Part shown: positions 52,024 through 64,000 of the stretch, one piece after another | Layout of the letters: each line of letters starts with the position of its first letter | Position numbering within the stretch: the stretch's first letter is position 1 | Assembly: GCA_963674965.2 (NCBI GenBank) | Contig: CAXXFL010000006.1 | Span: forward strand, 896,001 to 960,000 | Length of the DNA stretch: 64,000 nucleotides | Reading direction: 5' to 3' | Source of the DNA: a bacterium | GTDB lineage: Bacteria > RBG-13-61-14 > DATKZS01 | Position numbers and translations under genes: made by a program | Notes under the pieces: model-generated | What the model was told of the DNA's origin: nothing | What the model saw: only the letters and a program-made list of their open reading frames with translations | The model's database searches: none

Positions 52024-55000
52024 TTATTTCGCCTCGGCGGACTCGCCGGTGTTCGAAGACACCCGGTTGCGGTAAGCCGCCATGAACCCGGCCTTGAGCT
52101 TGTCCTCAAGCGTCTCCTTTTTGTCATCCACGTCCTTGGGCCGCACCCCGGCGTCACTGCGCATGGGAGGTTCCTGGTCGGATTTCTCGGCCCTGGATTT
52201 TTCCTTGTCGGCGGGAGGGTCTTCCTTCTTTTCGGTCTTTGCCTCGGCCCGACCCTTGATCATCCGCTCGTAGGCGGCCTCGGTCGCGGCAAAAGCGTCG
52301 TCGGTCATTTCCGCCAGACGTTTGAACTCGGCTTCGCGGTCCTCGTCGCTGTCGAAGGCGAGTCCCTGCTTTTCCAGCTTGCGGACGAGTTTCTGCGCCC
52401 GCGAACGGTTGGCCGCCGCCTGCTGTTCAGCCTCGAGTTCCTCGACCCGTTTCTGGAGAGAGGCAACCTGCTTCTTCAGTTCGCCGTTCTCCTTTTCCAA
52501 TTCCTTGATTCGGGTCTTGTCGTCGGTGGAGCCGCCACCTCCGCCCTCGTCCTGTTCTTCTTCCTTGCCTTTGGCGGCCTCGGCCCGCTCGTCTTTCTGC
52601 TTTTCCTTCTCGTCCATGGATGGACCTCCTTTTTCATGGTTTTCGGTTTCCGCGTCGTCAATATCCGCTACCTGGGTTATCCGCGCGTTCTCGTCCGCTC
52701 CCTTCCGGTCAAGAAGGCCCAGCCCGGTAAAAGTCACCCCATGCAGAATTTCGTACACGGGCTTTCCCTGGAATGAGCCTCCCTTGTTCTTCCGCAAATG
52801 AATGCAGTAGTCGGTCTTGTTCCTGACCTTCTTCCCGCACACCGAGCACTCGCCCTCCTCGTAATCGCACTCCATCGATACCTGGGTGATGATCCCGCGC
52901 TTCATCAGCTTGTAGGCCAGCTGGGCGTTCTGGCTGTCACCGGTATAAAGCTCTCCCACGCATTCGACCCGTCCGCCGTTCTCGTCCTCGATGAAGTCCG
53001 CGCCCACGATGCCGCCCACTATGTCGGTGAAGTCCTGCGAGTGCTTCAGGTCGATCTTCTTGTTGATAGCAGTCATGTATCTGGTGGAAAGCTCTTCCGG
53101 AGTGAAGTGGTCGCCGTTCTTGTTGGTCCCGGCCCGGCACAGCACGAAGGTGAATTGGGGGTCTCCGACGTGGTTGCCCATGTCGAGGGCCTCGGTGAAT
53201 AGTTCCTCAGACTCCATGATCTCGATATCGACCGGGACCGTTGTGTGGCAGGCTGCGGCGGACAGCGCCCCCTTGGAACGGGGCGCGCTCCTGGCCTTCG
53301 AGGCCACGAACAACAACTCCTTGGCGTGCTTGCCTTCCCGGCCTATGTCCTTGGCGATGTTATAGTCGACTTCCAGGCCGCTGACCTTGACCTGCCCGAA
53401 ATGATTGCCGAAGATTTCCTTGATCTCGTCCTCGCGGGGGAAGGCCCGGTCCCGGTAGGAGAGGAGAACTGCCCCGTACTTGCCCCGGGCGTCCGATGCC
53501 ATGGTCGTCATCAGTTCCCTGATCGACTCCTTGGTGTACTTCGTCCGGGAAGGGAAACTGCGCCTTGGGTTCGAGCCGATCTTCTTATCGGCCCAGCGGG
53601 TCATCAGCCCCTCCACGAAATGAAGGGAATCCTCGTAATCGTTCGACCCGAACTCCGTGACATAAGGCGGGTCCAGGTAAAGCACGTCCGCGCTGTAGCG
53701 CCTTACCGCCTCCGACGCCTCAAGGTTCGTGGCCTTGCATTCCTCCCCGTTGTCGAACACCAGGTTGTTGAGTTGATTGACCGAACGCCTGAAGGACTCG
53801 ATAAATTTCTTGAGAGGAGGGTTGGAAAGCTGCGACTGCTCCAGGCTGGCCTCCGCTTCCAGGTCCGCTTTCCGCTGCATCTTCGAGCGAGAGAACTGGC
53901 CGAAGGCGCTCTTGGACTTGACCGTTGTCCCCAGCGCCGCCAGCGCCAGATCCTTCTTGTAACCGGAGAGCTTCTGGATGTTGGACCACACCTGGTCGAG
54001 CCACTGGAGCACTGGCCTGGTGTAGTAATAGCCGTAGAAATGGTCCGCGATGAACGTGCCCGCGCCCGGATTGGGGGCGAGAAGCATGTCGATGTCCTCG
54101 TCGGTAAGTTTTTCGCTCGAATTCTCGACAACCGCCCGGGCCAGGTGGTGAGGGTACCTCAAGAGGTCATTGGCCATGACCTTGTATCCCTTTCGCTTCA
54201 GGTTGTAGGCCACGTTGGCCCCGCCCGAAAAAGCGTCAAGCACCGTCTTCGTGCCTTTGGGTATGTGGCTGTCGATCCAGCCCATCATGAGGTACTTGCT
54301 GCCCATGAAACCGGTGACCCGCACTGGGCCGCTTTTCCCGGCCACGCAACTTAAAAGGTCCACGGCGTCATCGAGAGGAGCATCGGCCAGAGCCCGCATG
54401 TTCTCCTCGATTCGCAAGGCCGCCTCGGCCGCCTGCTCGGACTCGTGCTTATCGATCCATTCCCTGGCCTTCTCCTTGCTCCAGCCGTCCGGAGTGTCAT
54501 CGGTCTTTCTGGCGAAACGATAGGCCTGGAGCACCATGCACTTGGGGTCGTGGCCTTCCTGGACGTGTTCTTTCTTAAGCCTCCCGACAATGATCGTGAC
54601 TCCATCCACTCCCTCGAGCGGCTTGGTTCGGAAGCTGTCCTTCTCGAACTGCTCGGGATCGCGCACCCGGTACCGGATCTCATTGTCGGTCTCGTCCCAG
54701 ATGGCCTCGGTATCGAGTTCGCCCTCTGCCCTGTCCTCCAGTGATGCCGCTGCTTTCTGGTCGGCCTTGCCCCGCTTGCAGATGAACAGCCGCTCCTTGG
54801 CGTGGGAGGCGTCACCGTGACGCGAGGTAATCGAGTAATGGTGATCATGCGAGCGCATGGTCGAGTCGTGCCCAAAGGAACTGATGATCCGCTTCATGTC
54901 CTTTTCGTTCGGGTAGGCGTGGTCCCGGTAGGAAATGAGCCAGTGAGGTATGTGCTTGGCCGCGCCCAGGAAGCCCTCGAAAAACTTGTTGGCGTTGGCC

Positions 55001-55899
55001 TTGGTCACGGTTATGTGGTCGGTCTCGTAATGTTTGGTCTTCGAGTCATCCTTGATCGTGAGCCCTTCCCAGTAGGTCATTAGGCCCTCGATAAAGTGAT
55101 AGGACTTTTCGTAGTTCGTGGTCGAAAACTCGGTGGCGTAAGGAGGGTCGAAGTAGACAAGGTCGACCTTCACTCCTGGGAGCAGTTCGTTAACATCCTT
55201 CCGGAATGCCTTGCAGTCCTTGCCGTTGTCGAAAACAAGAGCGTTGATCCGGGCTGCGTTCTTTTTGAAACGCTCCTTGAACTCGTCCGGCGAGTCTTCC
55301 CGCTTGCCGTACCGGGTCGAGGACGAGAAATGCCCGAACCCGCCCTTTCCGGACATGCAGGTTTTGCCCAGGGCGAAGAGCGCTATGTCCTTCTTGTAGC
55401 CGTCCAGCTTGTCGATATTGGCCCTGATGGTGTCGATCAGTCCGTGGACCCCGTTGGCGAAGAAGATTCCCTTGAACTTGTCCCGAACAAAAGTCTCGGC
55501 CTTGGGGTTGTCCGAAAGGAGCATCTCCAGGTCCTCGTCGGAGAGCCGGACCTTCTTGTTCTCGATAATCGCCCGCGCCGCATGGAAGCAGTAGCGCAGC
55601 CGGTCGTTGGAGATTACCCGAAGTCCCTTGGTCTTGTACATATAGGCCACCACCGCCGAGCCGGAGAAAGCGTCCAACGCCGACTCCACGCCCTCCGGTG
55701 TATGCTTCCAGATCCAGTCCACCAGCTTTTGCTTGGAGCCGATGTAGTTGGTGATGTACTTGGGACGCTTGCCCGGGGGAAGTTCGTCTTGAGAAACTTC
55801 CCTGGCCTGGGCCTCGAGTGCTTCGAAGTCCAGGTTTAGTGCCGCGTCGGTCTCCAGCAGGAAGGCCAACCGTTCGAAATCAGTGGCAAAAATTTCCAT
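52024..55899 (-). CDS. Fusion: two D12-class (FokI-like) adenine methyltransferases + small domain + prohead protease-like domain + scaffold
   Basis: YIGSK/DAFSGS/YFDPPY; FMGSK/DAFSGG/YLDPPY; NKNGDHF..IDLKH..VSMEC..CSVC..CIH..FTGLGLL..GAD; charged coiled-coil tail. Confidence 0.85.
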   Translation of the reverse strand: MEIFATDFERLAFLLETDAALNLDFEALEAQAREVSQDELPPGKRPKYITNYIGSKQKLVDWIWKHTPEGVESALDAFSGSAVVAYMYKTKGLRVISNDRLRYCFHAARAIIENKKVRLSDEDLEMLLSDNPKAETFVRDKFKGIFFANGVHGLIDTIRANIDKLDGYKKDIALFALGKTCMSGKGGFGHFSSSTRYGKREDSPDEFKERFKKNAARINALVFDNGKDCKAFRKDVNELLPGVKVDLVYFDPPYATEFSTTNYEKSYHFIEGLMTYWEGLTIKDDSKTKHYETDHITVTKANANKFFEGFLGAAKHIPHWLISYRDHAYPNEKDMKRIISSFGHDSTMRSHDHHYSITSRHGDASHAKERLFICKRGKADQKAAASLEDRAEGELDTEAIWDETDNEIRYRVRDPEQFEKDSFRTKPLEGVDGVTIIVGRLKKEHVQEGHDPKCMVLQAYRFARKTDDTPDGWSKEKAREWIDKHESEQAAEAALRIEENMRALADAPLDDAVDLLSCVAGKSGPVRVTGFMGSKYLMMGWIDSHIPKGTKTVLDAFSGGANVAYNLKRKGYKVMANDLLRYPHHLARAVVENSSEKLTDEDIDMLLAPNPGAGTFIADHFYGYYYTRPVLQWLDQVWSNIQKLSGYKKDLALAALGTTVKSKSAFGQFSRSKMQRKADLEAEASLEQSQLSNPPLKKFIESFRRSVNQLNNLVFDNGEECKATNLEASEAVRRYSADVLYLDPPYVTEFGSNDYEDSLHFVEGLMTRWADKKIGSNPRRSFPSRTKYTKESIRELMTTMASDARGKYGAVLLSYRDRAFPREDEIKEIFGNHFGQVKVSGLEVDYNIAKDIGREGKHAKELLFVASKARSAPRSKGALSAAACHTTVPVDIEIMESEELFTEALDMGNHVGDPQFTFVLCRAGTNKNGDHFTPEELSTRYMTAINKKIDLKHSQDFTDIVGGIVGADFIEDENGGRVECVGELYTGDSQNAQLAYKLMKRGIITQVSMECDYEEGECSVCGKKVRNKTDYCIHLRKNKGGSFQGKPVYEILHGVTFTGLGLLDRKGADENARITQVADIDDAETENHEKGGPSMDEKEKQKDERAEAAKGKEEEQDEGGGGGSTDDKTRIKELEKENGELKKQVASLQKRVEELEAEQQAAANRSRAQKLVRKLEKQGLAFDSDEDREAEFKRLAEMTDDAFAATEAAYERMIKGRAEAKTEKKEDPPADKEKSRAEKSDQEPPMRSDAGVRPKDVDDKKETLEDKLKAGFMAAYRNRVSSNTGESAEAK

Positions 55900-56198: not shown

Positions 56199-56324
56199 TC
56201 AGTCCCCAGCACAACGGAATCCTATGTTGTTGTTCTGGTTAGTAGGCGTATTGTTGTTCCGGTTTGCTACGCGCAGGTTGTTCGTATTGTTGTTCCAATT
56301 GCCGCCGCGCAAAACGCGATACGT
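56199..56324 (-). ncRNA. DGR template repeat (TR)
   Basis: 126-bp ungapped match to 57825-57950; 14 Asn (AAY) codons in the target frame; overlaps the RT stop codon by 1 nt. Confidence 0.96.
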
Positions 56325-57400
56325 TATCGGCCACCCTCCCCAATCACGAATACAAACGATGGCAGCATTTGCGCTCTGAGTTTGTAGCTGTCGGCATAGG
56401 ACGCGTGAGACAGCCATGAAGTAACCGAGGCACCGATCTCCGAAAGCGCGACCTCGCCTCTCGAATATTCATCCTGCAACCGCCTCATCCTGGCCTTGAA
56501 GCGTCTGACGTTTTCCTTGCGCACCTTGGTCATGTGCGGCAGGTGCCTGAACCCGAGGAACTCCACTCCCTCCTTCACCGTGTATATCCTGCTCTTACCG
56601 TCATGGATTGAAAGTCGAAGCCCGGCCAGGTAATCGACCACCGCGGACCTGATCTCGTTCAGCCGATTCTTGTCGTCGCCGAAGATGCAAAAGTCGTCCA
56701 CATAGCGGACATACGGCCCGGCCCTGAGCTCCTCCTTAACCCAGTGGTCGAAGTCATTTAGGTAAAGGTTGGCGAAGAACTGGCTGGTCAGGTTGCCCAC
56801 CGGGATGCCGCGTCTCCTTTCATGCGGCGTGAACAGGCCGTCGCCGGGGTAGTAAATGATCGGCCCCTTGTCATTGAAACAGCGCGAGCCGATGATCTCG
56901 GAAAGCAGCCACATCGCGTCCCGGTCCGCGATCCTGCGCGAAAGTTTCCCGATCAGTATCTCGTGGTCAATGCTCTGGAAATATTTGCGGATGTCGCACT
57001 TGAGCACATACTTGTGGCGCTTGAGGAACTCCCGGAATCGCATGAGCGCTGCATGCGTGCCCTTGCCCTTTCTGCAGGCATAGCTGTCGGGGATGAAGCT
57101 TTTATCGAACAGCGGTTCGATAATATTGGTCACCGCGTGATGGACCACCCGGTCGCGATAGGGCGCGGCAGAAATCAGCCGCTTCTTTGCGTCCTTGACA
57201 ATGAAGTCGTGGTACGGGCCGTGATGATAGATTTTATGTAGCAGTTCGTCATGAAGCCGAAACAGGTTCCTCTCCAGGTCCATGTTGAAAATGAGCGTGC
57301 TCTCCCGGTAGCGCTTGCCATTCTGTGCTTTTTTGGAAGCCAGCAAGAGGTTCTGAAAACTCGCGATCTCGGGGAAGATGTTTTTGAAAGTCTTGGCCAA
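56324..57400 (-). CDS. DGR reverse transcriptase
   Basis: [46 protein letters not shown] (DGR-type SQ), RYVDDF, FLG. Confidence 0.96.
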
Positions 57401-57409
57401 TACTCCGCC

Positions 57410-57754
57410 TCACGTCTTCTTTGCCGCCTGCTTGCGCCAGCCGCCCACCTGGCTGCCAAGCTCGGTAATCATCTTCATCACGTGCTCGTAGCCCTTGTTG
57501 GAAAGAGCACCAAGGTCACGGCTAAGGCGAAGAAGAAAGCGAAGACGCTCCAGCCGTCGATTTGCTTCATCAAGCAGGTGTACTTTATCACGACGATATG
57601 ATGCCTCTGTTAAAATCTCAAGAATCGAAAGGCAATTGTCCACGATCCTCTCTCCGAGCGAATACTTAAGATCTTTTGGAAACTTTGAAACCCTTGGCAA
57701 AACCTCTTTGCACAGATCATACGCCTTTTGAACAGCGGGAAGTTCTTTCTTCAT
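57410..57754 (-). CDS. avd: DGR accessory variability determinant (four-helix bundle)
   Basis: 114 aa basic; KAYDL..FPK..KYSLGERI..LRFLLRLS..ELGSQVGGW; directly upstream of RT. Confidence 0.92.
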   Translation of the reverse strand: MKKELPAVQKAYDLCKEVLPRVSKFPKDLKYSLGERIVDNCLSILEILTEASYRRDKVHLLDEANRRLERLRFLLRLSRDLGALSNKGYEHVMKMITELGSQVGGWRKQAAKKT

Positions 57755-57766
57755 TTTTAAAAATTT

Positions 57767-57794
57767 TTTAATGGGGGCTTACGCCCCCATTAAA
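57767..57794 (-). promoter_or_regulatory. DGR target-recognition hairpin/cruciform downstream of VR
   Basis: Perfect 12-bp stem TTTAATGGGGGC/GCCCCCATTAAA with 4-nt loop (GTAA on minus strand), 30 nt after the target stop. Confidence 0.8.
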
Positions 57795-57824
57795 GTGTAA
57801 GAGTTAAAAAGGACAAAAGAGTAA

Positions 57825-57950
57825 TCAGTCCCCAGCACAACGGAAGCCTATGAAGACGCTCTGGGCAGTAGGCGAAAGGTTGTACCGGTTCGCCACGCGC
57901 AGGGTGCCCGAAGTGATGTGCCAACCCCCGCCGCGCAAAACGCGATACGT
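57825..57950 (-). repeat. DGR variable repeat (VR)
   Basis: 24 differences from TR, 23 at TR adenines; 14 amino-acid changes. Confidence 0.96.
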
Positions 57951-59138
57951 ACCTGACGCGGGACCGGGAGGATCGTTGGTGGGACTTGTACTGTAGTAAT
58001 CGCTCTGATACCAGTCGTTGACCCATTCATAAACATTACCCCCCACATCATAAAGACCGTAACCATTAGCAGGATAGCTTTCAACCTCGCTGGTATCTCC
58101 AATACACCAATCGTAATTTGCGTCAACACATGCTGTAGCTGTATCTCCCCAGGGATAGCGTTTGCCGGACAGGCCGCCACGGGCAGCGTACTCCCACTCG
58201 GCCTCGGTGGGCAGTCTCTTGCCCGCCCAGGCGCAATAGGCCGTGGCCTGATTCCAGTCAACCCAGATAACAGGAAAATTGTCATAGGTCGGATTACCGT
58301 AATAAGAGCCGCGAGAATAACTTGAAGAATAGCCGGGCGCCGTGCATCCCCCTCCGCTCACGCAAGCCGCGTACTCCGAGTTGGTCACCTCATGAACGTC
58401 CATGTAGAAGTCCGAGGTGATGCAAACGTTATGCACCGGAAGTTCATCGCTGCTTCCCTCGCTGAACGCGTCGCCCATGTTGAAACAGCCGGAGGGGATA
58501 AGGGCCATTGGGCCGACAGTGCTTCCTCCCTGGCAGTCAGGGTCATCACCGTCGATCTTGCCGTCGCAGTCATTATCGAAACCGTCGTCACAGACTTCGG
58601 CCGCGCCGGGGTTTATGGAGGCGTCGACATCGTTGCAATCCGTGGTGGCCGTGGCCCCGTCAACGACCTTTGAGTAACCGTCCCCGTCGTAATCGCTCTT
58701 ATTGTAAAAGGCCGTAAGCCAGCCTCCTTCTACCTTCAAGGCATAAGGCACGCTGGCGATCCTGGACCGGGGCGACATCTCGCCATCGCTTTCAACCTCG
58801 ACTCCCATCCACACGTCCTGGTGGTTCTGGAAGACAGCGGAGAGGCTTGGCTCGGTACCCGGCGTTACCGTGCCCGAGCCGATGAGAACATTATAAAGCC
58901 CGCCGGTGACCGCCACGTCCTCCTGGAGAACGGTCAGATAAGCGGTCCCGCCCGTTTCAACACCATAAAACGCGAACGTCAGATCAACGGTAGACCCGTC
59001 CGCAAGAGGCTGGCCTGCAGAGTTCGTGAGCCGCCCCTGGTAATTGATAAGCTGCGGAGCGGACTGCGCCCAGGCAATGCCCACCACCACGGCCATAACA
59101 AAAACACCAACCAACGCCATTCCAATCTTAGCCCTCAT
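57825..59138 (-). CDS. DGR target: signal peptide + beta domain + MopE-like Cys/Asp motif + FGE-sulfatase (CLec) domain
   Basis: MRAKIGMALVGVFVMAVVVGIAWA-QS; INYQGRL; DCND..INPGAAEVCDDGFDNDCDG; F.MG..E.PVH, EVTN..Y, RLPTEAEWEYAARGG, GNVYEW, RGG.W..GFRC. Confidence 0.93.
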   Translation of the reverse strand: MRAKIGMALVGVFVMAVVVGIAWAQSAPQLINYQGRLTNSAGQPLADGSTVDLTFAFYGVETGGTAYLTVLQEDVAVTGGLYNVLIGSGTVTPGTEPSLSAVFQNHQDVWMGVEVESDGEMSPRSRIASVPYALKVEGGWLTAFYNKSDYDGDGYSKVVDGATATTDCNDVDASINPGAAEVCDDGFDNDCDGKIDGDDPDCQGGSTVGPMALIPSGCFNMGDAFSEGSSDELPVHNVCITSDFYMDVHEVTNSEYAACVSGGGCTAPGYSSSYSRGSYYGNPTYDNFPVIWVDWNQATAYCAWAGKRLPTEAEWEYAARGGLSGKRYPWGDTATACVDANYDWCIGDTSEVESYPANGYGLYDVGGNVYEWVNDWYQSDYYSTSPTNDPPGPASGTYRVLRGGGWHITSGTLRVANRYNLSPTAQSVFIGFRCAGD

Positions 59139-59241: not shown

Positions 59242-59571
59242 TTAAAATAGTGATCGCAGCTTAGCGGCGGCAAAAGCTTCCGCGGATGCTAATTCTTCGA
59301 TCTCGACAATTGGCCCTCGCATGCCTTTATAGGGTGATAGGGTTTTCTGGTGGTACGCCAGGAAATCCTCGGGAAGCGATTTGACTCCAGCTTCCACAAG
59401 CCGGTTGATGACCCAGTCGGCCTCCTCCTGAGCTTCTTGGTTGCCGGGGAAGTACTTGATGACCAGGTCGAGTCCGGGGCCGGGCCCCTGGACCCAGACG
59501 CCGATTGGCTCGTAATGGGGATCGCGAATGCGGTCGCGGAGCGCGTACTCGATCATGTAGCGGAGCTTCAT
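59242..59571 (-). CDS. Hypothetical protein downstream of MuF (candidate immunity)
   Basis: 109 aa; ATGA overlap with 59568-60038. Confidence 0.6.
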   Translation of the reverse strand: MKLRYMIEYALRDRIRDPHYEPIGVWVQGPGPGLDLVIKYFPGNQEAQEEADWVINRLVEAGVKSLPEDFLAYHQKTLSPYKGMRGPIVEIEELASAEAFAAAKLRSLF

Positions 59572-60038
59572 TCCCACTCCTCCGCGATCCGGATGTGTTC
59601 TTCAAGGATGCTCTGATCGGCGGTCTCAAACCTCTCCTTGTTCTCGGCCTTGTACTTTTGCCAGGCCTTCCAGTCTTCGACCATCCCCGGCTCCGAAACC
59701 TCCATGATCAATTCCACGTGGAAGCGCCGGTCCATGTCATCGAACAAATCAATCAGGTAGGTGTCGTCCTGATCCCAGCGCCGGACCTTGATGGTGTGCG
59801 AATACTGGAACCCTTGGTCGTAGCCAGCCATCTTGAAAAGGAGCCAGAAGTCCACGTGGGTCATTTCGCCCGAGGCGTTGAAAATCGGGGCCACGCGGGT
59901 GACCGTGTAGCTGTCAACCAGGCCCAGGCGGATCGACTCACTGCCGCGCTCCCGCATCTCGATCCACGATCCTTGCTGGTTGAACTCCGCGAACAGGGCC
60001 TGCAGTCGCTCTTTTTCCTTTTCGATAAACTCCTTCAT
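59568..60038 (-). CDS. Acidic hypothetical protein immediately downstream of MuF (candidate immunity)
   Basis: 156 aa from MKEFIEKEK, 2 bp after the MuF stop, GAGGTG RBS. Confidence 0.65.
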   Translation of the reverse strand: MKEFIEKEKERLQALFAEFNQQGSWIEMRERGSESIRLGLVDSYTVTRVAPIFNASGEMTHVDFWLLFKMAGYDQGFQYSHTIKVRRWDQDDTYLIDLFDDMDRRFHVELIMEVSEPGMVEDWKAWQKYKAENKERFETADQSILEEHIRIAEEWE

Positions 60039-60040
60039 GC

Positions 60041-63000
60041 TCACCTCGCAATCACAATATCCTCGACCTTGCGGCCGTCGGGAAGTTTCACGATACCCTT
60101 CTTGCGGAATGAATCCAGTATCTTTTTCCGCTCGTTCTGGCTCCCGACCACGATGACCTCGATGTTGTCCAAGAGCGTCACCGAATACTTGAATATGGTC
60201 TCGTTGCCGCTCTTCTTCGCGAACCTTTTCCACTCCTCGGGAGTGCTGCCGCGATGCCGCGTCACGTAGTCGTCCACCACTTTGCCGTAAGCGTCATGGT
60301 CGTAACTTATCGCGTCCATCCGGCGCAGGAGCCGCTTCTTGAAGTACAGCCCGGTTTCGCCCGGCCCTCTTTCCGGCACCTTCTTTATCCGCGTGAAAAA
60401 GTAGCTTGCTCCGCCGGTTCTCATGTCCTCTTCGGGCGACATTCCTCCCACCGGGACCCCGGCCCGCAGTTTCTCGACGGTGCTTACCGCCGCGCCGTTC
60501 TGCTCGATCACCTTGTCGAGGAATGAGGACACGCTCTCTCCATTGGTGAGGTGGTGATGGAGCGCATAGCCTTTCATCTGCTTCTCCAGGTCCTCGTCCG
60601 AGATATCGAACCGGTATTGATGCCTGTAACCGGCGCTTTTGCCGGGCTGCTTGAACGCCAACTGGTGCTCGCCGATGGGATCATAACCCGGCATGCGAGT
60701 CAGGTCTTTCACGCCCAGGCGTTTTTCCCAGAACGACCGCATCTCCCGGACACGGACTTCCTTGCTCGCGGACCGCCGATCAAGGTCGGCGACTATCTTC
60801 TTGTATGCCGCGTCCTTGTCTACCTTGGACAGATAAGCCTGCTTGTGAAGGTAGAGCAGTTCGGCGTCCTCGGCGGTAGCCGGGGTGGAGTTGAGTCCAA
60901 GGCTCTCCATGTGCTCCATCGCCCGCTCCATGCTCTTCGCGTCCGGGCGATCCGGCAGAACTATCTCGAACTCGCCCCGCTGGGCATAGAGGTTCTTCTC
61001 CGACCAGGGGCGGTACACGGCCTTTATGCCGTCGCCGAAGTCAACTTCGTACTGCTCGCCAGCCTTCATGCTGTGGCCCTTGAACATGGCGGAATTGTCC
61101 GAGTTCTCGTTCACCACCACCAGGTCGCCCTTCTTCAGTTCGCGTTTCTCGTGCAGGACCTTCGAGCGAGTAACCTTGAAACCCGCGTCCTTGGCCTTAG
61201 CCGGGCGAGGCGATTCGTGCTTCTTGGTATAGGCACCGAACATTTCATTTATCGGCTTCTTGGCCCGCTCGGCATCCTCGATCTTGGAGAGCCAGGCCAG
61301 GTACTCGTTGGCCATGCCCCGAACGTCTGGGTCGCTCGACTGGGCCAGCTTCTGGAGCGCCTTTTCGTAGCCCTTGGCCTTGTTCAGCTTGTCCTGGTTG
61401 TACTTCTTGTCGTCTTTGTGGTGGTTGATGGTCTTGGCGGCGGCCAGGATGTCATCGGCGAACCGGTCCTCGGGCAAGGTGTCGCCGACCTTGGTCGAGG
61501 CGGGATCAATCCCGGCCTTCTTGAGCGCCTCCAGGATTTTCGCGTCGGCCTCGGGCCGGACCTTCATTTTGACCACGGTCCGCTCCTTGCCCTTGGCTTT
61601 TTCAACGAAAATGAGAGCGTTCTGGTCCTCGATGTCATCTTCGTCAATGGGAAGCGCTTTTCCCTGCCAACCAAGGCGCCTTACTTCCTCGATTAATTTT
61701 TCATCCTCCGGACCGAGGCGTCCCTTTTTGGCGATAGGTTCAGCCGCGTCCTCGAAACGGAACCCCTTTTTGCCAAGGACGTCTGAGTAGAAAGATTCGA
61801 AGTCGCGACGAAGGTTGCGCTTTCGATCCAGGGCCGTCTCGTAAAAAGCCTTCTTTTTCGCTTCGTCCTTCCCGAACCGGCCCTCGACGTATGGGCGCAG
61901 CATATCCAGATAGTCGTCATCCGATATTTTTTCGACTTCGCGGATGTACTTCAGCGTGACGGAGGGGTCGGGTTTAACCTTGCCTTGCTTGGCCGCCCTG
62001 AAGACCGCGTTGTAAAAAGGCTCCTGCTCGCCGAACTTCTGGTTCGGGTGATAGTCGATGGAAAGCTTGTCCTCGCCCAGGTGCTTGAGCAACTGCCCTT
62101 TGTCGATGCCGTAAATCTTGCCGCTCCTGGAGCGGAGGAACTGCTTGGAGTGGCCGTCGTGATTAGAGATGAGCCAGTCGATCACGTGCTCGCGCTGGAT
62201 CTGTTCAAGCTCAAGGGTGGTGAGGTCGGTGGGGTCCATGCCCGAGAAGTCGATCTTGGACTGAAGGTCGGTGCGCCATTTCTGGATCGAGCCGAGCTTT
62301 CCCTTGAGTCGAATGGTACGGACTTCGATGGCGTCAGGATCGATCATCCGGGCGATTTTGTAAGCGGCCTCCTCGCCGTAAGCGATGAACTCGTCGCCTG
62401 ACTTCTCGACCGGTTTGAACATCCACTTGTCGCCGTTCTCGTCGGTCCAGAATTCCTTGCTGTGAGCGCCTCCCACCTGGGCTTTCCCGGCGGGCTTGAA
62501 CTTGCCCGCTTTCCTTTTTGCCTCCCAGGCCTTGTCCGCATCCTCGAATTCCGATCCCTTCTTGGTGAAGGTCGGCTTTGCCACTGGTTCAGGCTCGGGC
62601 GGAGGCGGGGCTTTTACCTCGGGTTTCGGTTTCGATGCTTTCTTCTTGCCGCCGTGTTTCTCGGCCCAGGCGGCATGCTTTTCCTCGATGGCTGCCTTGG
62701 CCGCTTCGACCTTCTTTGGATCGGTCTCGCTGAACAGGGTGACCAGTTCATCCTTGTTCGCCCACTGCCAGTGCTTGAGCTTGGTGTCCTTGGCCAGGGT
62801 CTTGAGGTCGCCCACCTTCATGCCCGCCAGTTGCTCCTGAAACACCTTCTTCTTGAGCGCCAGTTCCTTGGCATGTGATTCAAGCATCTCCTGCGGCAAA
62901 ACACCGCCTTCTTCGAGCGCGGTTTCTGCATCCTTAACCGCCGCCAGGAAGTCTTCGTATTGGGTGGGCGACTTGGGCAGCACAACCTTGGCAGATGACT

Positions 63001-64000
63001 CTTCCACGCTCTCCTTGGCTTTTTTGATCTTCTCCTTGGCGGCGGTCTCGACCGCCTCCTTCTTTGCTTTCTCGGCAAGTTCCTGGCCGGCGGATTTCTC
63101 GATGGCCTTGGCGAGTTGCTCCTTGTTCTTGAGCGGCCCGATGTGATGCTTTTTCTTGGCCGCCATGAGGTCTTTTCCCTGAAGGCCCGAGTGGTCGATG
63201 CCAGGCTCCAGTTCATCCAGGAGATCGATCACGTCCTGCTTGGTCATATTGAGGGAGATGCCCTTTTCCTTCGCCATCTCCTTTAGCTCCGCCGCCGATA
63301 AACCCTGCAGTCCCTTTGGATCGGGAATCTTCTTCAACTGTTCGGCAACCTGCTGGGCCTGCTTGAGCGCAGATTGTTTCTCGGCCAGGAGCTTGACCAG
63401 TTCTTCCTTGGTTCTTAGAAGCCCTATCTTGTGCTGCTTCAGCTTTGCTTTGAGCGCCTGGCCTGACAGGTCCGAGTGGTCGATGCCGGGTTCTGCCTGA
63501 TCCAGTAGCTTGATAAAGTCGGATTTGGTGCGGGCTATGGAAACGCCGTTCTGTTTGCTAAGGGCCTGCAACTGCTTTGAGGTAAGGGCTTCCAGATCGC
63601 CGATCCCTCCCTTTTCGAATGCGGCCTTCAGCTTGGCGTCCTCGGTTGCTTTGGCCTTGGCTTGTCCCTCGATGGCTTGTGGCGGGAGGATGCAGGCGGA
63701 AGGTTCATCGGCCGCCACCGCGCCCAACTCTCCACCGCAGATTTTTAAAGGCCAGGCCGGGAGGTTGCTGCAGCGACAATTGGGGTGAGCGGGTTGCTGT
63801 GGGAAGCGGTCGATGTCATAAGTCTTGCCGTCGAGTGGACCGCACACAGGACATACCCGCTCGTCCTCCATGGTCATCCATTCGAGCTTTCGAACGCCAA
63901 CGTGCTTATGGAACTTGATCCTCCCCTGGTTGTGAGCTCGCAGTACTTCGGTCCGGGCTATGACCTCCATCCGGTATTGGGCCTTGCTGAACACCTTCGA
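60041..64000 (-). CDS. MuF/SPP1 gp7-like minor head protein with long C-terminal extension (5' end outside window)
   Basis: IARTE..W....DERVCPVC..HPNCRC; five helix-extension-helix-like repeats; kinase-like WMFKP..E..DWLISNHDGH..IDKG; C-terminal LHHHL..VST..YFFTR..NETIF. Confidence 0.85.
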   Translation of the reverse strand, partial: SKVFSKAQYRMEVIARTEVLRAHNQGRIKFHKHVGVRKLEWMTMEDERVCPVCGPLDGKTYDIDRFPQQPAHPNCRCSNLPAWPLKICGGELGAVAADEPSACILPPQAIEGQAKAKATEDAKLKAAFEKGGIGDLEALTSKQLQALSKQNGVSIARTKSDFIKLLDQAEPGIDHSDLSGQALKAKLKQHKIGLLRTKEELVKLLAEKQSALKQAQQVAEQLKKIPDPKGLQGLSAAELKEMAKEKGISLNMTKQDVIDLLDELEPGIDHSGLQGKDLMAAKKKHHIGPLKNKEQLAKAIEKSAGQELAEKAKKEAVETAAKEKIKKAKESVEESSAKVVLPKSPTQYEDFLAAVKDAETALEEGGVLPQEMLESHAKELALKKKVFQEQLAGMKVGDLKTLAKDTKLKHWQWANKDELVTLFSETDPKKVEAAKAAIEEKHAAWAEKHGGKKKASKPKPEVKAPPPPEPEPVAKPTFTKKGSEFEDADKAWEAKRKAGKFKPAGKAQVGGAHSKEFWTDENGDKWMFKPVEKSGDEFIAYGEEAAYKIARMIDPDAIEVRTIRLKGKLGSIQKWRTDLQSKIDFSGMDPTDLTTLELEQIQREHVIDWLISNHDGHSKQFLRSRSGKIYGIDKGQLLKHLGEDKLSIDYHPNQKFGEQEPFYNAVFRAAKQGKVKPDPSVTLKYIREVEKISDDDYLDMLRPYVEGRFGKDEAKKKAFYETALDRKRNLRRDFESFYSDVLGKKGFRFEDAAEPIAKKGRLGPEDEKLIEEVRRLGWQGKALPIDEDDIEDQNALIFVEKAKGKERTVVKMKVRPEADAKILEALKKAGIDPASTKVGDTLPEDRFADDILAAAKTINHHKDDKKYNQDKLNKAKGYEKALQKLAQSSDPDVRGMANEYLAWLSKIEDAERAKKPINEMFGAYTKKHESPRPAKAKDAGFKVTRSKVLHEKRELKKGDLVVVNENSDNSAMFKGHSMKAGEQYEVDFGDGIKAVYRPWSEKNLYAQRGEFEIVLPDRPDAKSMERAMEHMESLGLNSTPATAEDAELLYLHKQAYLSKVDKDAAYKKIVADLDRRSASKEVRVREMRSFWEKRLGVKDLTRMPGYDPIGEHQLAFKQPGKSAGYRHQYRFDISDEDLEKQMKGYALHHHLTNGESVSSFLDKVIEQNGAAVSTVEKLRAGVPVGGMSPEEDMRTGGASYFFTRIKKVPERGPGETGLYFKKRLLRRMDAISYDHDAYGKVVDDYVTRHRGSTPEEWKRFAKKSGNETIFKYSVTLLDNIEVIVVGSQNERKKILDSFRKKGIVKLPDGRKVEDIVIAR

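Follow-up and report, generated by a model that had tools for sequence, protein, structure and literature searches.

A MuF head protein of a myovirus-like prophage with predicted kinase and DarT-like ADP-ribosyltransferase domains, a candidate for head-packaged enzyme cargo

The 64,000-nucleotide stretch of bacterial DNA analysed here (the window; assembly GCA_963674965.2, contig CAXXFL010000006.1, G000:C6:896001-960000) contains part of a myovirus-like prophage and, at its right edge, a long minus-strand gene for a minor head protein of the MuF (SPP1 gp7) type. Besides the MuF domain, this protein carries DNA-binding-type repeats, a kinase-like domain and a C-terminal domain with the predicted fold of the DarT ADP-ribosyltransferases (ARTs). 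The stop codon lies at 60041-60043, and the window does not contain the whole open reading frame (ORF): it lacks the first 204 codons, so that the GTG at 63994 is an internal codon and the true ATG is found 612 nt past the window end (L002:4713), 12 nt downstream of the portal stop. Extended into the contig, the gene encodes 1523 aa (minus strand, G000:C6:956041-960612, which equals L002:142-4713); all residue numbers refer to this full-length protein, whose relatives measure 1510-1536 aa. Its parts within the window are the following:

60041..64000, minus strand: window part of the 1523-aa MuF-repeat-kinase-ART gene (ORF calling and extension into the contig)
63767..64000, minus strand: C-terminal part of the MuF / SPP1 gp7 domain, including CPVC...HPNCRC; the domain comprises aa 168-282 (Pfam Phage_Mu_F, TIGR01641, PHROGs)
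63488..63601, minus strand: helix-extension-helix (HeH)/SAP-like repeat R1, aa 338-375 (leave-one-out hidden Markov model (HMM) 24.6 bits, 0/200 shuffles)
63371..63484, minus strand: HeH-like repeat R2, aa 377-414 (leave-one-out HMM 36.1 bits, 0/200 shuffles)
63203..63316, minus strand: HeH/SAP-like repeat R3, aa 433-470 (leave-one-out HMM 21.4 bits, 0/200 shuffles)
63086..63199, minus strand: HeH-like repeat R4, aa 472-509 (leave-one-out HMM 19.7 bits, 0/200 shuffles)
62723..62836, minus strand: possible fifth repeat R5, weak, aa 593-630 (leave-one-out HMM 2.6 bits, 13/200 shuffles)
62534..62650, minus strand: Lys/Pro-rich linker, aa 655-693 (read from the translation)
61733..62533, minus strand: predicted atypical kinase domain with PI4KII / CtkA / HipA-type fold, aa 694-960 (AF2, Foldseek, VIA, conservation)
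60611..61732, minus strand: conserved middle region of 374 residues, aa 961-1334 (AF2, conservation)
60044..60610, minus strand: predicted DarT-like ART fold, aa 1335-1523 (AF2, Foldseek, VIA, conservation)

This architecture largely bears out an initial annotation made from the letters alone. All motifs named there are present on the minus strand and in their places (HPNCRC at residue 276, GGAHSK at 714, MFKP at 731, EEAAY at 747, NHDGH at 817 and IDKG at 836; further motifs are LHHH at 1351, GGASYFF at 1400 and GNETIF at 1469), and its coordinates fit the repeats (62723-63601), the kinase (61733-62533) and the terminal domain (60044-60610) as we delimit them. The Pro/Lys linker is also there, with the Pro-rich PPPPEP at 669. 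Apart from the start of the ORF, the picture had to be revised in two respects: of the five repeats claimed, four are solid but the fifth is weak, and the list of MuF domain, repeats, kinase and ART, although right in its members, skipped the entire middle region.

The MuF domain, already recognised in the initial annotation, scores above the curated cut-offs of Pfam Phage_Mu_F (PF04233; E 2.8e-15, 57.4 bits vs a cut-off of 29.6) and NCBIfam TIGR01641 (E 6.8e-17, 61.8 bits vs 39.65) and matches many PHROGs of the 'minor head/head morphogenesis' kind. Since the gene also lies directly downstream of the portal gene within the head module, both profile and position place the protein among the MuF / SPP1 gp7 proteins. 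The four 38-residue repeats that follow represent two tandem copies of a double unit. When each repeat was scored against 200 shuffles, none of the shuffles reached the 19.7-36.1 bits observed for R1-R4. The nucleic-acid-binding character proposed for the repeats agrees with their likeness to SAP and Rho_N, which stays just below cut-off in this protein: the 40-aa segment of R3 matches Pfam Rho_N at E 3.4e-4 and SAP at E 3.6e-3, both below cut-off, and Rho_N reaches 24.0-24.3 bits on the protein at a cut-off of 24.9. Some relatives carry precomputed matches to PF07498 (Rho_N) or PF02037 (SAP). For R5, a Rho_N match of its 40-aa segment at E 0.063, again below cut-off, stands beside the low HMM score. 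SAP and Rho_N helix-extension-helix motifs usually bind nucleic acid, and by analogy the repeats of this head protein would bind DNA or another nucleic acid as well.

For the kinase-like domain, an AF2 model of aa 694-960 built from an alignment of 34 sequences reached a pLDDT of 95.4 and a pTM of 0.92. Searched against the PDB with Foldseek, this model gave at least 500 matches at E<=0.001, with CtkA from Helicobacter pylori on top (E 2.5e-6, prob 1.0) and PI3K, PI4K and protein kinases making up the remainder. The comparison with VIA led to the same families, with CtkA (Z 15.5, root-mean-square deviation (rmsd) 3.8, 222 residues aligned) and PI4KIIalpha (Z 15.4, rmsd 3.7, 229 aligned) followed by Golgi casein kinase (Z 12.3), PI3K/VPS34/mTOR (Z about 11) and HipA (Z 10.7). 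The kinase-like domain of the initial annotation therefore has a PI4KII/CtkA/HipA-type fold in the predicted structure, including a helical C-lobe that aligns with CtkA and PI4KII. By sequence, the protein is not a member of Pfam HipA_C; among 40 relatives, matches to HipA_C were found in 17 (best E 1.1e-6), to PI3_PI4_kinase (PF00454) in seven and to HipA_2 in two. Key positions are almost invariant among the aligned relatives, with K733 in 241/241, Q777 in 241/242, D819 in 243/243 and D837 in 243/243 sequences. We take K733 (FKP) as the putative ATP-binding Lys, D819 (NHDGH) as the putative catalytic-loop Asp and D837 (IDKG) as the putative metal-binding Asp, and from model and conservation together we read the domain as a predicted active atypical kinase.

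The terminal domain was modelled together with the middle region (aa 965-1523, AF2, alignment of 40 sequences, pLDDT 93.4). Foldseek against the PDB ranked a Thermus DarT with NAD+ first (E 3.2e-3, prob 1.0, TM 0.53 on the target), with other DarT entries next. VIA, run independently of Foldseek over 48,161 chains, placed four DarTs at the top, all aligned to model residues of about 371-559, equivalent to aa 1335-1523: E. coli DarT1 (Z 11.3, rmsd 3.2, 156 aligned), Thermosipho DarT (Z 10.6), Thermus DarT (Z 10.2) and M. tuberculosis DarT (Z 9.8). In this search SopF was the next ART other than DarT, at Z 6.3, and in a second look with VIA the top six were also DarTs. The structural matches listed include no Tpt1/KptA, PARP or Alt-type ART, and this absence excludes nothing. 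Compared with viral models, the best matches were uncharacterised proteins of giant viruses, an iridovirus and baculoviruses, together with a few phage proteins; a DarT-related 'ORF28' family of arthropod DNA viruses is described by Iyer et al. (2022, PMC9503650).

The arrangement of conserved residues fits this fold. H1353 is the last residue of a strand, the core strand after it consists of G-G-A-S-Y-F-F-T-R (1400-1408), and E1471 (N-E-T-I-F-K) starts a later one, so that H1353, Y1404 and E1471 follow the order of the ART H-Y-E triad. Conservation is high at H1353 (233/246), R1383 (243/254), S1392 (253/255), D1396 (255/255), G1400 (255/255), Y1404 (239/254), F1406 (241/254), R1408 (242/254), D1440 (254/254), G1443 (254/254) and E1471 (253/254). 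In DarT, the key residues described in PMC11543638 are a glutamate (E152/E160), an arginine (R52/R51), Y71 of DarT2 and a base-contacting residue in the ARTT loop. Compared by motif order, not by superposition, both proteins have the succession His - Arg - Tyr - (Asp) - Glu. This would put the Glu at the ART-characteristic position, the His on strand 1 and the conserved Arg in the order of R51 of DarT2, as a candidate for the Arg that serves in proton abstraction; the S-Y-F-F strand resembles the V-S-F-Y-F of DarT. Overall, the DarT toxins (PF14487; 8baq, 7omu, 7omv, 7yk3) are the best structural match, with Z 9.8-11.3 over 145-156 aligned residues. Unlike them, the domain forms the C-terminus of a head protein of 1523 aa, is not accompanied by a DarG, and shows no significant sequence similarity to DarT. 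An hhalign comparison of the C domain with one DarT was not significant, ART-PolyVal (PF18760) gave no match on the C segment at E<=5, and in sequence searches of the PDB the best hit of the whole protein had E 0.42, while the profile of alignment A2 returned only helical-bundle noise. The Pfam DarT profile (PF14487) finds the DarT of the host itself at 203 bits. The ART-like domain of the initial annotation can therefore be specified as DarT-like in predicted fold, yet by sequence it is a family separate from Pfam DarT.

The middle region also folds confidently within this model, as a beta-rich core with an inserted three-helix bundle, followed by a helical subdomain. In the architectures of relatives it travels with the ART domain, and its conserved polar residues include E995, D996, K1017, D1049, K1060, H1065, E1251, Y1254, R1334 and D1336. 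Foldseek and VIA with the aa 965-1523 model gave no convincing fold match for it, and a search of the ESM Atlas yielded no usable match. CYTH/TTM entries (2fjt, 1yem, 2dc4, 2een, 7nsa, 7nsf, 2qy2, 3tvl) recur on model residues 44-280 at Z 5.0-5.9, which is below the noise level of the tool, and an ExExK-type signature was not seen among the conserved residues of the region; the likeness to CYTH/TTM proteins is a lead only.

To what extent these domains belong together can be judged from the family. Searching aa 694-1523 against 1.84 billion representatives returned 2184 representatives at E<=1e-3, of which 770 are retained at E<=1e-30. Among the best 150 of the 2184, a list biased to proteins matching the whole query, the kinase was found in 116, the ART in 137 and both in 105; the middle region and ART occur with no kinase in 19, ten have one or two kinase copies alone, and seven have two kinase copies plus the ART. 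MuF was counted in 46/150, an undercount, as the MuF profile was built from close relatives. Near-length relatives keep the order MuF-kinase-middle-ART in 109/120 cases, with the ART tip 51-88% identical. From sequence comparison, kinase, middle region and ART thus behave as one mobile cassette, which is found in head proteins, usually in fusion with MuF, and which is conserved and not a polymorphic tip. Pfam searches on 22 long relatives detected MuF in 13, portal+MuF+ART-PolyVal in one, MuF+NUDIX in two and an intein in one. In individual relatives (P0173, P0266, P0182, P0260) a NUDIX domain lies between MuF and middle-ART, portal+MuF+ART-PolyVal is fused to the kinase, with ART-PolyVal as an extra domain in P0182, or an intein sits just after MuF.

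In PHROGs, the family corresponds to phrog_6577 of 'unknown function'. A tblastn search of 50,697 phage records found no full-length relative, and none of the 85 matching records covers 80% of the query. Among cultured phages, gp54 of mycobacteriophage McProf shares the kinase domain (residues 476-731, 32% identical, E 6e-38) and combines it with a VG15 N-terminus and a classical ADPrib_exo_Tox ART in place of the DarT-like one. Gp15 of Pseudanabaena phage Pan1 shares the ART region (residues 627-916, 29% identical, E 2e-31) and is without the kinase. Both are head proteins encoded next to the portal gene or in the head module, and these domains are unannotated in their records. The gene also occurs, at 59-73% identity, on two very short contigs (L055 and L065; 1.3 and 1.1 kb) in the metagenome-assembled genome (MAG) of a Methanomicrobiaceae archaeon, which probably reflects a binning artefact rather than an archaeal host.

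The surrounding genes identify the element as a myovirus-like prophage, with the order large terminase (TerL) - portal - MuF-kinase-ART gene - orfA - orfB - (diversity-generating retroelement, DGR) - methyltransferase (MTase) fusion - major head protein - neck - sheath - tube - tape measure - baseplate. The portal gene (phrog_2739, E 2.5e-62) is preceded by the large terminase gene, and the MuF-kinase-ART gene occupies the usual position of MuF/gp7 genes. Its neighbours within the window are:

59568..60038, minus strand: orfA, 156 aa, separated by 2 nt from the MuF gene stop
59242..59577, minus strand: orfB, about 110 aa, with its ATG overlapping the orfA stop (ATGA)
57825-59138: DGR target gene, with signal peptide, MopE motif and FGE-sulfatase (C-type-lectin-like) domain
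57410-57754: DGR bAvd
56324-57400: DGR reverse transcriptase
56199-56324: DGR template repeat of 126 nt, 81% identical to the variable end of the target (57825-57950)
52024-55899: MTase fusion ORF, 1291 aa, with two D12 N6-adenine methyltransferase stretches (Pfam E 9.2e-45)

Searches of Pfam, PHROGs and NCBIfam gave no family for orfA or orfB, and neither is similar to the genes after Pan1 gp15 or McProf gp54. Both ORFs follow the MuF gene in 13/13 viral contigs with downstream DNA. In the 38 genome loci whose downstream DNA extends for at least 900 nt, which were found with a single protein as query and are therefore only close relatives, orfA follows in 37 and orfB in 36, and the MTase fusion comes next in most. 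A complex prediction of the ART region (aa 1200-1523) with orfA scored 0.01, with the mark at 0.32, and speaks neither for nor against binding.

The MTase fusion lies just upstream of the major head protein gene, where a protease/scaffold gene is usually found, and relatives keep it beside the MuF gene. The C-terminal half of the ORF gives a match to phrog_27806, and the ORF has a Glu/Lys-rich tail. The initial annotation had remarked that this fusion, too, appears to serve as a cargo carrier of the head; the two D12 stretches and the gene position make this plausible, but for the protease/scaffold part there is only a weak PHROG match to a head maturation protease (E 0.002). Given its position next to the major head protein gene, the fusion may be a second head-borne enzyme cargo.

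Further observations concern the mobile and defence genes of this region. The complete DGR lies between orfB and the MTase gene (56199-59138), and as it is absent at this spot in most relatives, it represents an insertion. Beyond the window end, between the terminase and portal genes and on the opposite strand, an AbiEi antitoxin / AbiEii nucleotidyltransferase toxin pair (L002:6666-8464, plus strand) is likely a prophage-borne defence insertion. On another contig, the host encodes a DarT (203 bits to PF14487) with a Macro-domain DarG, beside a gene for a type I restriction specificity subunit (L005:1474-3184, G000:C2:110090-111800). The lysogen consequently possesses both a classical DarTG system and a phage DarT-like head protein.

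A subgroup of relatives, about 60% identical to the ART region of this protein, calls for a separate remark. Sixteen of its loci are 95-100% identical in DNA over 5.9 kb, and a Hydrogenedentales MAG (L058) is 91-93% identical to these 16 (loci of the near-identical group: L036-L047, L049, L052, L054, L058, L066). The record titles of the subgroup name Desulfobacterota of several orders, Ectothiorhodospira, a Rhodospirillaceae MAG and a Verrucomicrobiota MAG. Four records, the chromosome of Desulfosarcina alkanivorans PL12, a scaffold of Ectothiorhodospira shaposhnikovii DSM 243, Desulfocarbo indianensis and the Verrucomicrobiota MAG, share a prophage of 56-80 kb with about 95-97% DNA identity (G013:C1:358649-414752; G014:C11:53795-113695; G015:C222:228425-310000; G016:C1:2076-46206). 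The shared part has a GC content of 62-63% in all four, and the flanks differ, the 18-kb Ectothiorhodospira flank giving only short end matches in the other genomes. Going by these sequences, the element may represent a temperate phage able to infect a very wide range of hosts, with phyla as named in the records and bearing in mind that MAG bins can misplace phage contigs. We found no paper on this cross-phylum prophage in the literature.

With regard to known systems, the protein is closest to the polyvalent proteins, in which MuF is joined to several enzymatic domains including ART and kinase within the head module (Iyer et al., 2017, PMC5512222; Iyer et al., 2022, PMC9503650). It combines at least two effector-type domains on one phage polypeptide in a virion-gene context and hence belongs to this class. 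The published polyvalent ARTs form the HYD2/ART-PolyVal clade, whereas the ART found here is DarT-like and not matched by PF18760 at E<=5. The published kinases are described there as being without the whole C-terminal subdomain, whereas our model has a helical C-lobe, a distinction that goes by the description only. With CtkA of Helicobacter pylori, the type II PI 4-kinases and HipA, the kinase domain shares the fold over the whole domain as well as catalytic-loop and IDxG-type motifs; unlike them, it is fused to a phage head protein, has Gln for the loop Asn in most members and stays below the Pfam cut-offs.

Taken together, we consider it probable that this protein is a head-packaged enzyme cargo that enters the host together with the DNA of the phage. 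According to this model, a minor head protein of the MuF (SPP1 gp7) type has been extended into a 'polyvalent' cargo protein, whose N-terminal MuF domain would place it in the procapsid at the portal, while the HeH/SAP-type repeats, with the flexible Lys/Pro linker next to them, would hold it on the packaged DNA. Each virion would contain a few copies, which would pass with the DNA out of the head and into the cell, where the kinase would phosphorylate host proteins early in infection and the DarT-like NAD+-dependent transferase would ADP-ribosylate a host target, in order to take over the cell or to blunt host defences. Because a DarT-like fold and DNA-binding-type repeats occur in the same protein, nucleic acid seems somewhat more likely than protein as the ART target. 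T4 Alt, a packaged ART, provides the functional precedent, although Alt is an R-S-E ART and not fused to MuF. Very few cases of head-packaged effector enzymes are known to have been tested, for example T4 Alt and the P1 Dar proteins. The delivery step is modelled on the MuF/gp7 proteins and T4 Alt: for MuF and polyvalent proteins, packaging into the head and injection in the manner of Alt have been proposed (Iyer et al., 2017, PMC5512222; Iyer et al., 2022, PMC9503650; Jamet et al., 2017, PMC5576092), and ejection together with the genome is what we infer from these cases.

Several points weigh against this proposal. Packaging and ejection are argued from analogy, and activity from folds and conserved residues. 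At the sequence level, the kinase domain of this protein remains below every Pfam cut-off (HipA_C, PF07804, 19.6 bits vs 30.5), and the position of the PI3K-type catalytic-loop Asn is Gln here (Q in 158, N in 68 and A in 13 of 243 relatives). No ART family, DarT PF14487 included, matches the C domain in the profile search at E<=5, the DarT profile matches one of 40 relatives, at E 0.052, and hhalign of the C-domain profile against 120 DarTs gave a probability of 0.9%. The catalytic residues of both domains were assigned from motif order and conservation, without superposition on CtkA or DarT. In addition, a DarT-like enzyme would also threaten the DNA of the phage itself, and no DarG (Macro) or NADAR antitoxin adjoins it: the prophage has no Macro or NADAR gene, and in the genome there are three Macro matches, all on other contigs, and no NADAR match.

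In an alternative reading, the enzymes would act on the phage itself, with the DNA-tethered ART, and perhaps the kinase, modifying its own DNA or head proteins at packaging or entry, for instance as an anti-restriction mark beside the Dam-type MTases. Such self-modification would agree with the DNA-binding-type repeats in the same chain, with DNA-modifying DarTs as the best structural matches, and with the two D12 MTase domains of the adjacent head gene, the gene pair being syntenic in relatives. Nevertheless, we regard it as unlikely, as NAD+ and ATP are unexpected inside a capsid, the prophage contains no enzyme that removes ADP-ribose, and marks of the DarT type block replication in the cases studied (PMC11543638).

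A further possibility is a MuF polymorphic toxin as described by Jamet et al. (2017, PMC5576092), whose tip harms non-lysogens while orfA and/or orfB provide immunity to the lysogen; competition of this kind was among the functions suggested in the initial annotation. As with the toxins of that paper, a temperate phage, here a prophage, encodes a MuF carrier that bears an enzyme at its C-terminus, and two small, tightly coupled, family-less ORFs follow in nearly all of the genome loci. The protein differs from these toxins by its two enzymes and the conserved middle region. Against the idea, the conserved N-terminus is not combined with a variable C-terminal toxin; the kinase-middle-ART block is itself conserved and is kept with the N-terminus in the great majority of near-length relatives, so that competition in this sense fits poorly. 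Small ORFs between gp7 and the scaffold gene are also present in toxin-free phages such as SPP1, and orfA and orfB are unlike the genes after the MuF proteins of Pan1 and McProf; a polymorphic toxin is therefore quite improbable. Finally, the kinase-like and ART-like domains might have no catalytic activity and act purely as scaffolds for assembling the head or retaining DNA, as pseudokinases and inactive ART folds exist and the sequence matches to enzyme families are below cut-off, but this is very improbable given that the Lys, both Asp and the ART His/Tyr/Glu positions are 94-100% conserved over about 240-255 diverged relatives, which is hard to explain without catalysis or ligand binding.

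Returning to the packaged cargo, its delivery concept has already been published, but the kinase + DarT-like cassette, though very widespread, appears to be unstudied: we found no paper on it, most subscription journals being outside our search. With its 2184 cluster representatives, the cassette is among the commonest candidates for head-packaged effectors. As close relatives are present in the cultured and non-pathogenic strains Desulfosarcina alkanivorans PL12, Ectothiorhodospira shaposhnikovii DSM 243 and Desulfofustis glycolicus DSM 9705, virion proteomics and enzyme tests are feasible. A more far-reaching and doubtful idea is that repeats, kinase, middle region and ART form one DNA-tethered machine on the leading genome end, which would ADP-ribosylate host DNA or RNA at entry and, together with the MTase cargo, provide a general entry kit across very different hosts, with orfA and orfB keeping it silent in the producing cell. 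If true, this would help to explain the 95-97% identical prophage in bacteria of different phyla. More generally, atypical kinases and DarT-like transferases serve elsewhere as bacterial toxins or defence effectors, and here these enzyme types have been adopted by a phage. Should nucleic acid prove to be the substrate of the transferase, the phage would carry a counterpart of the defence toxin DarT, in a prophage whose host has a DarT of its own.

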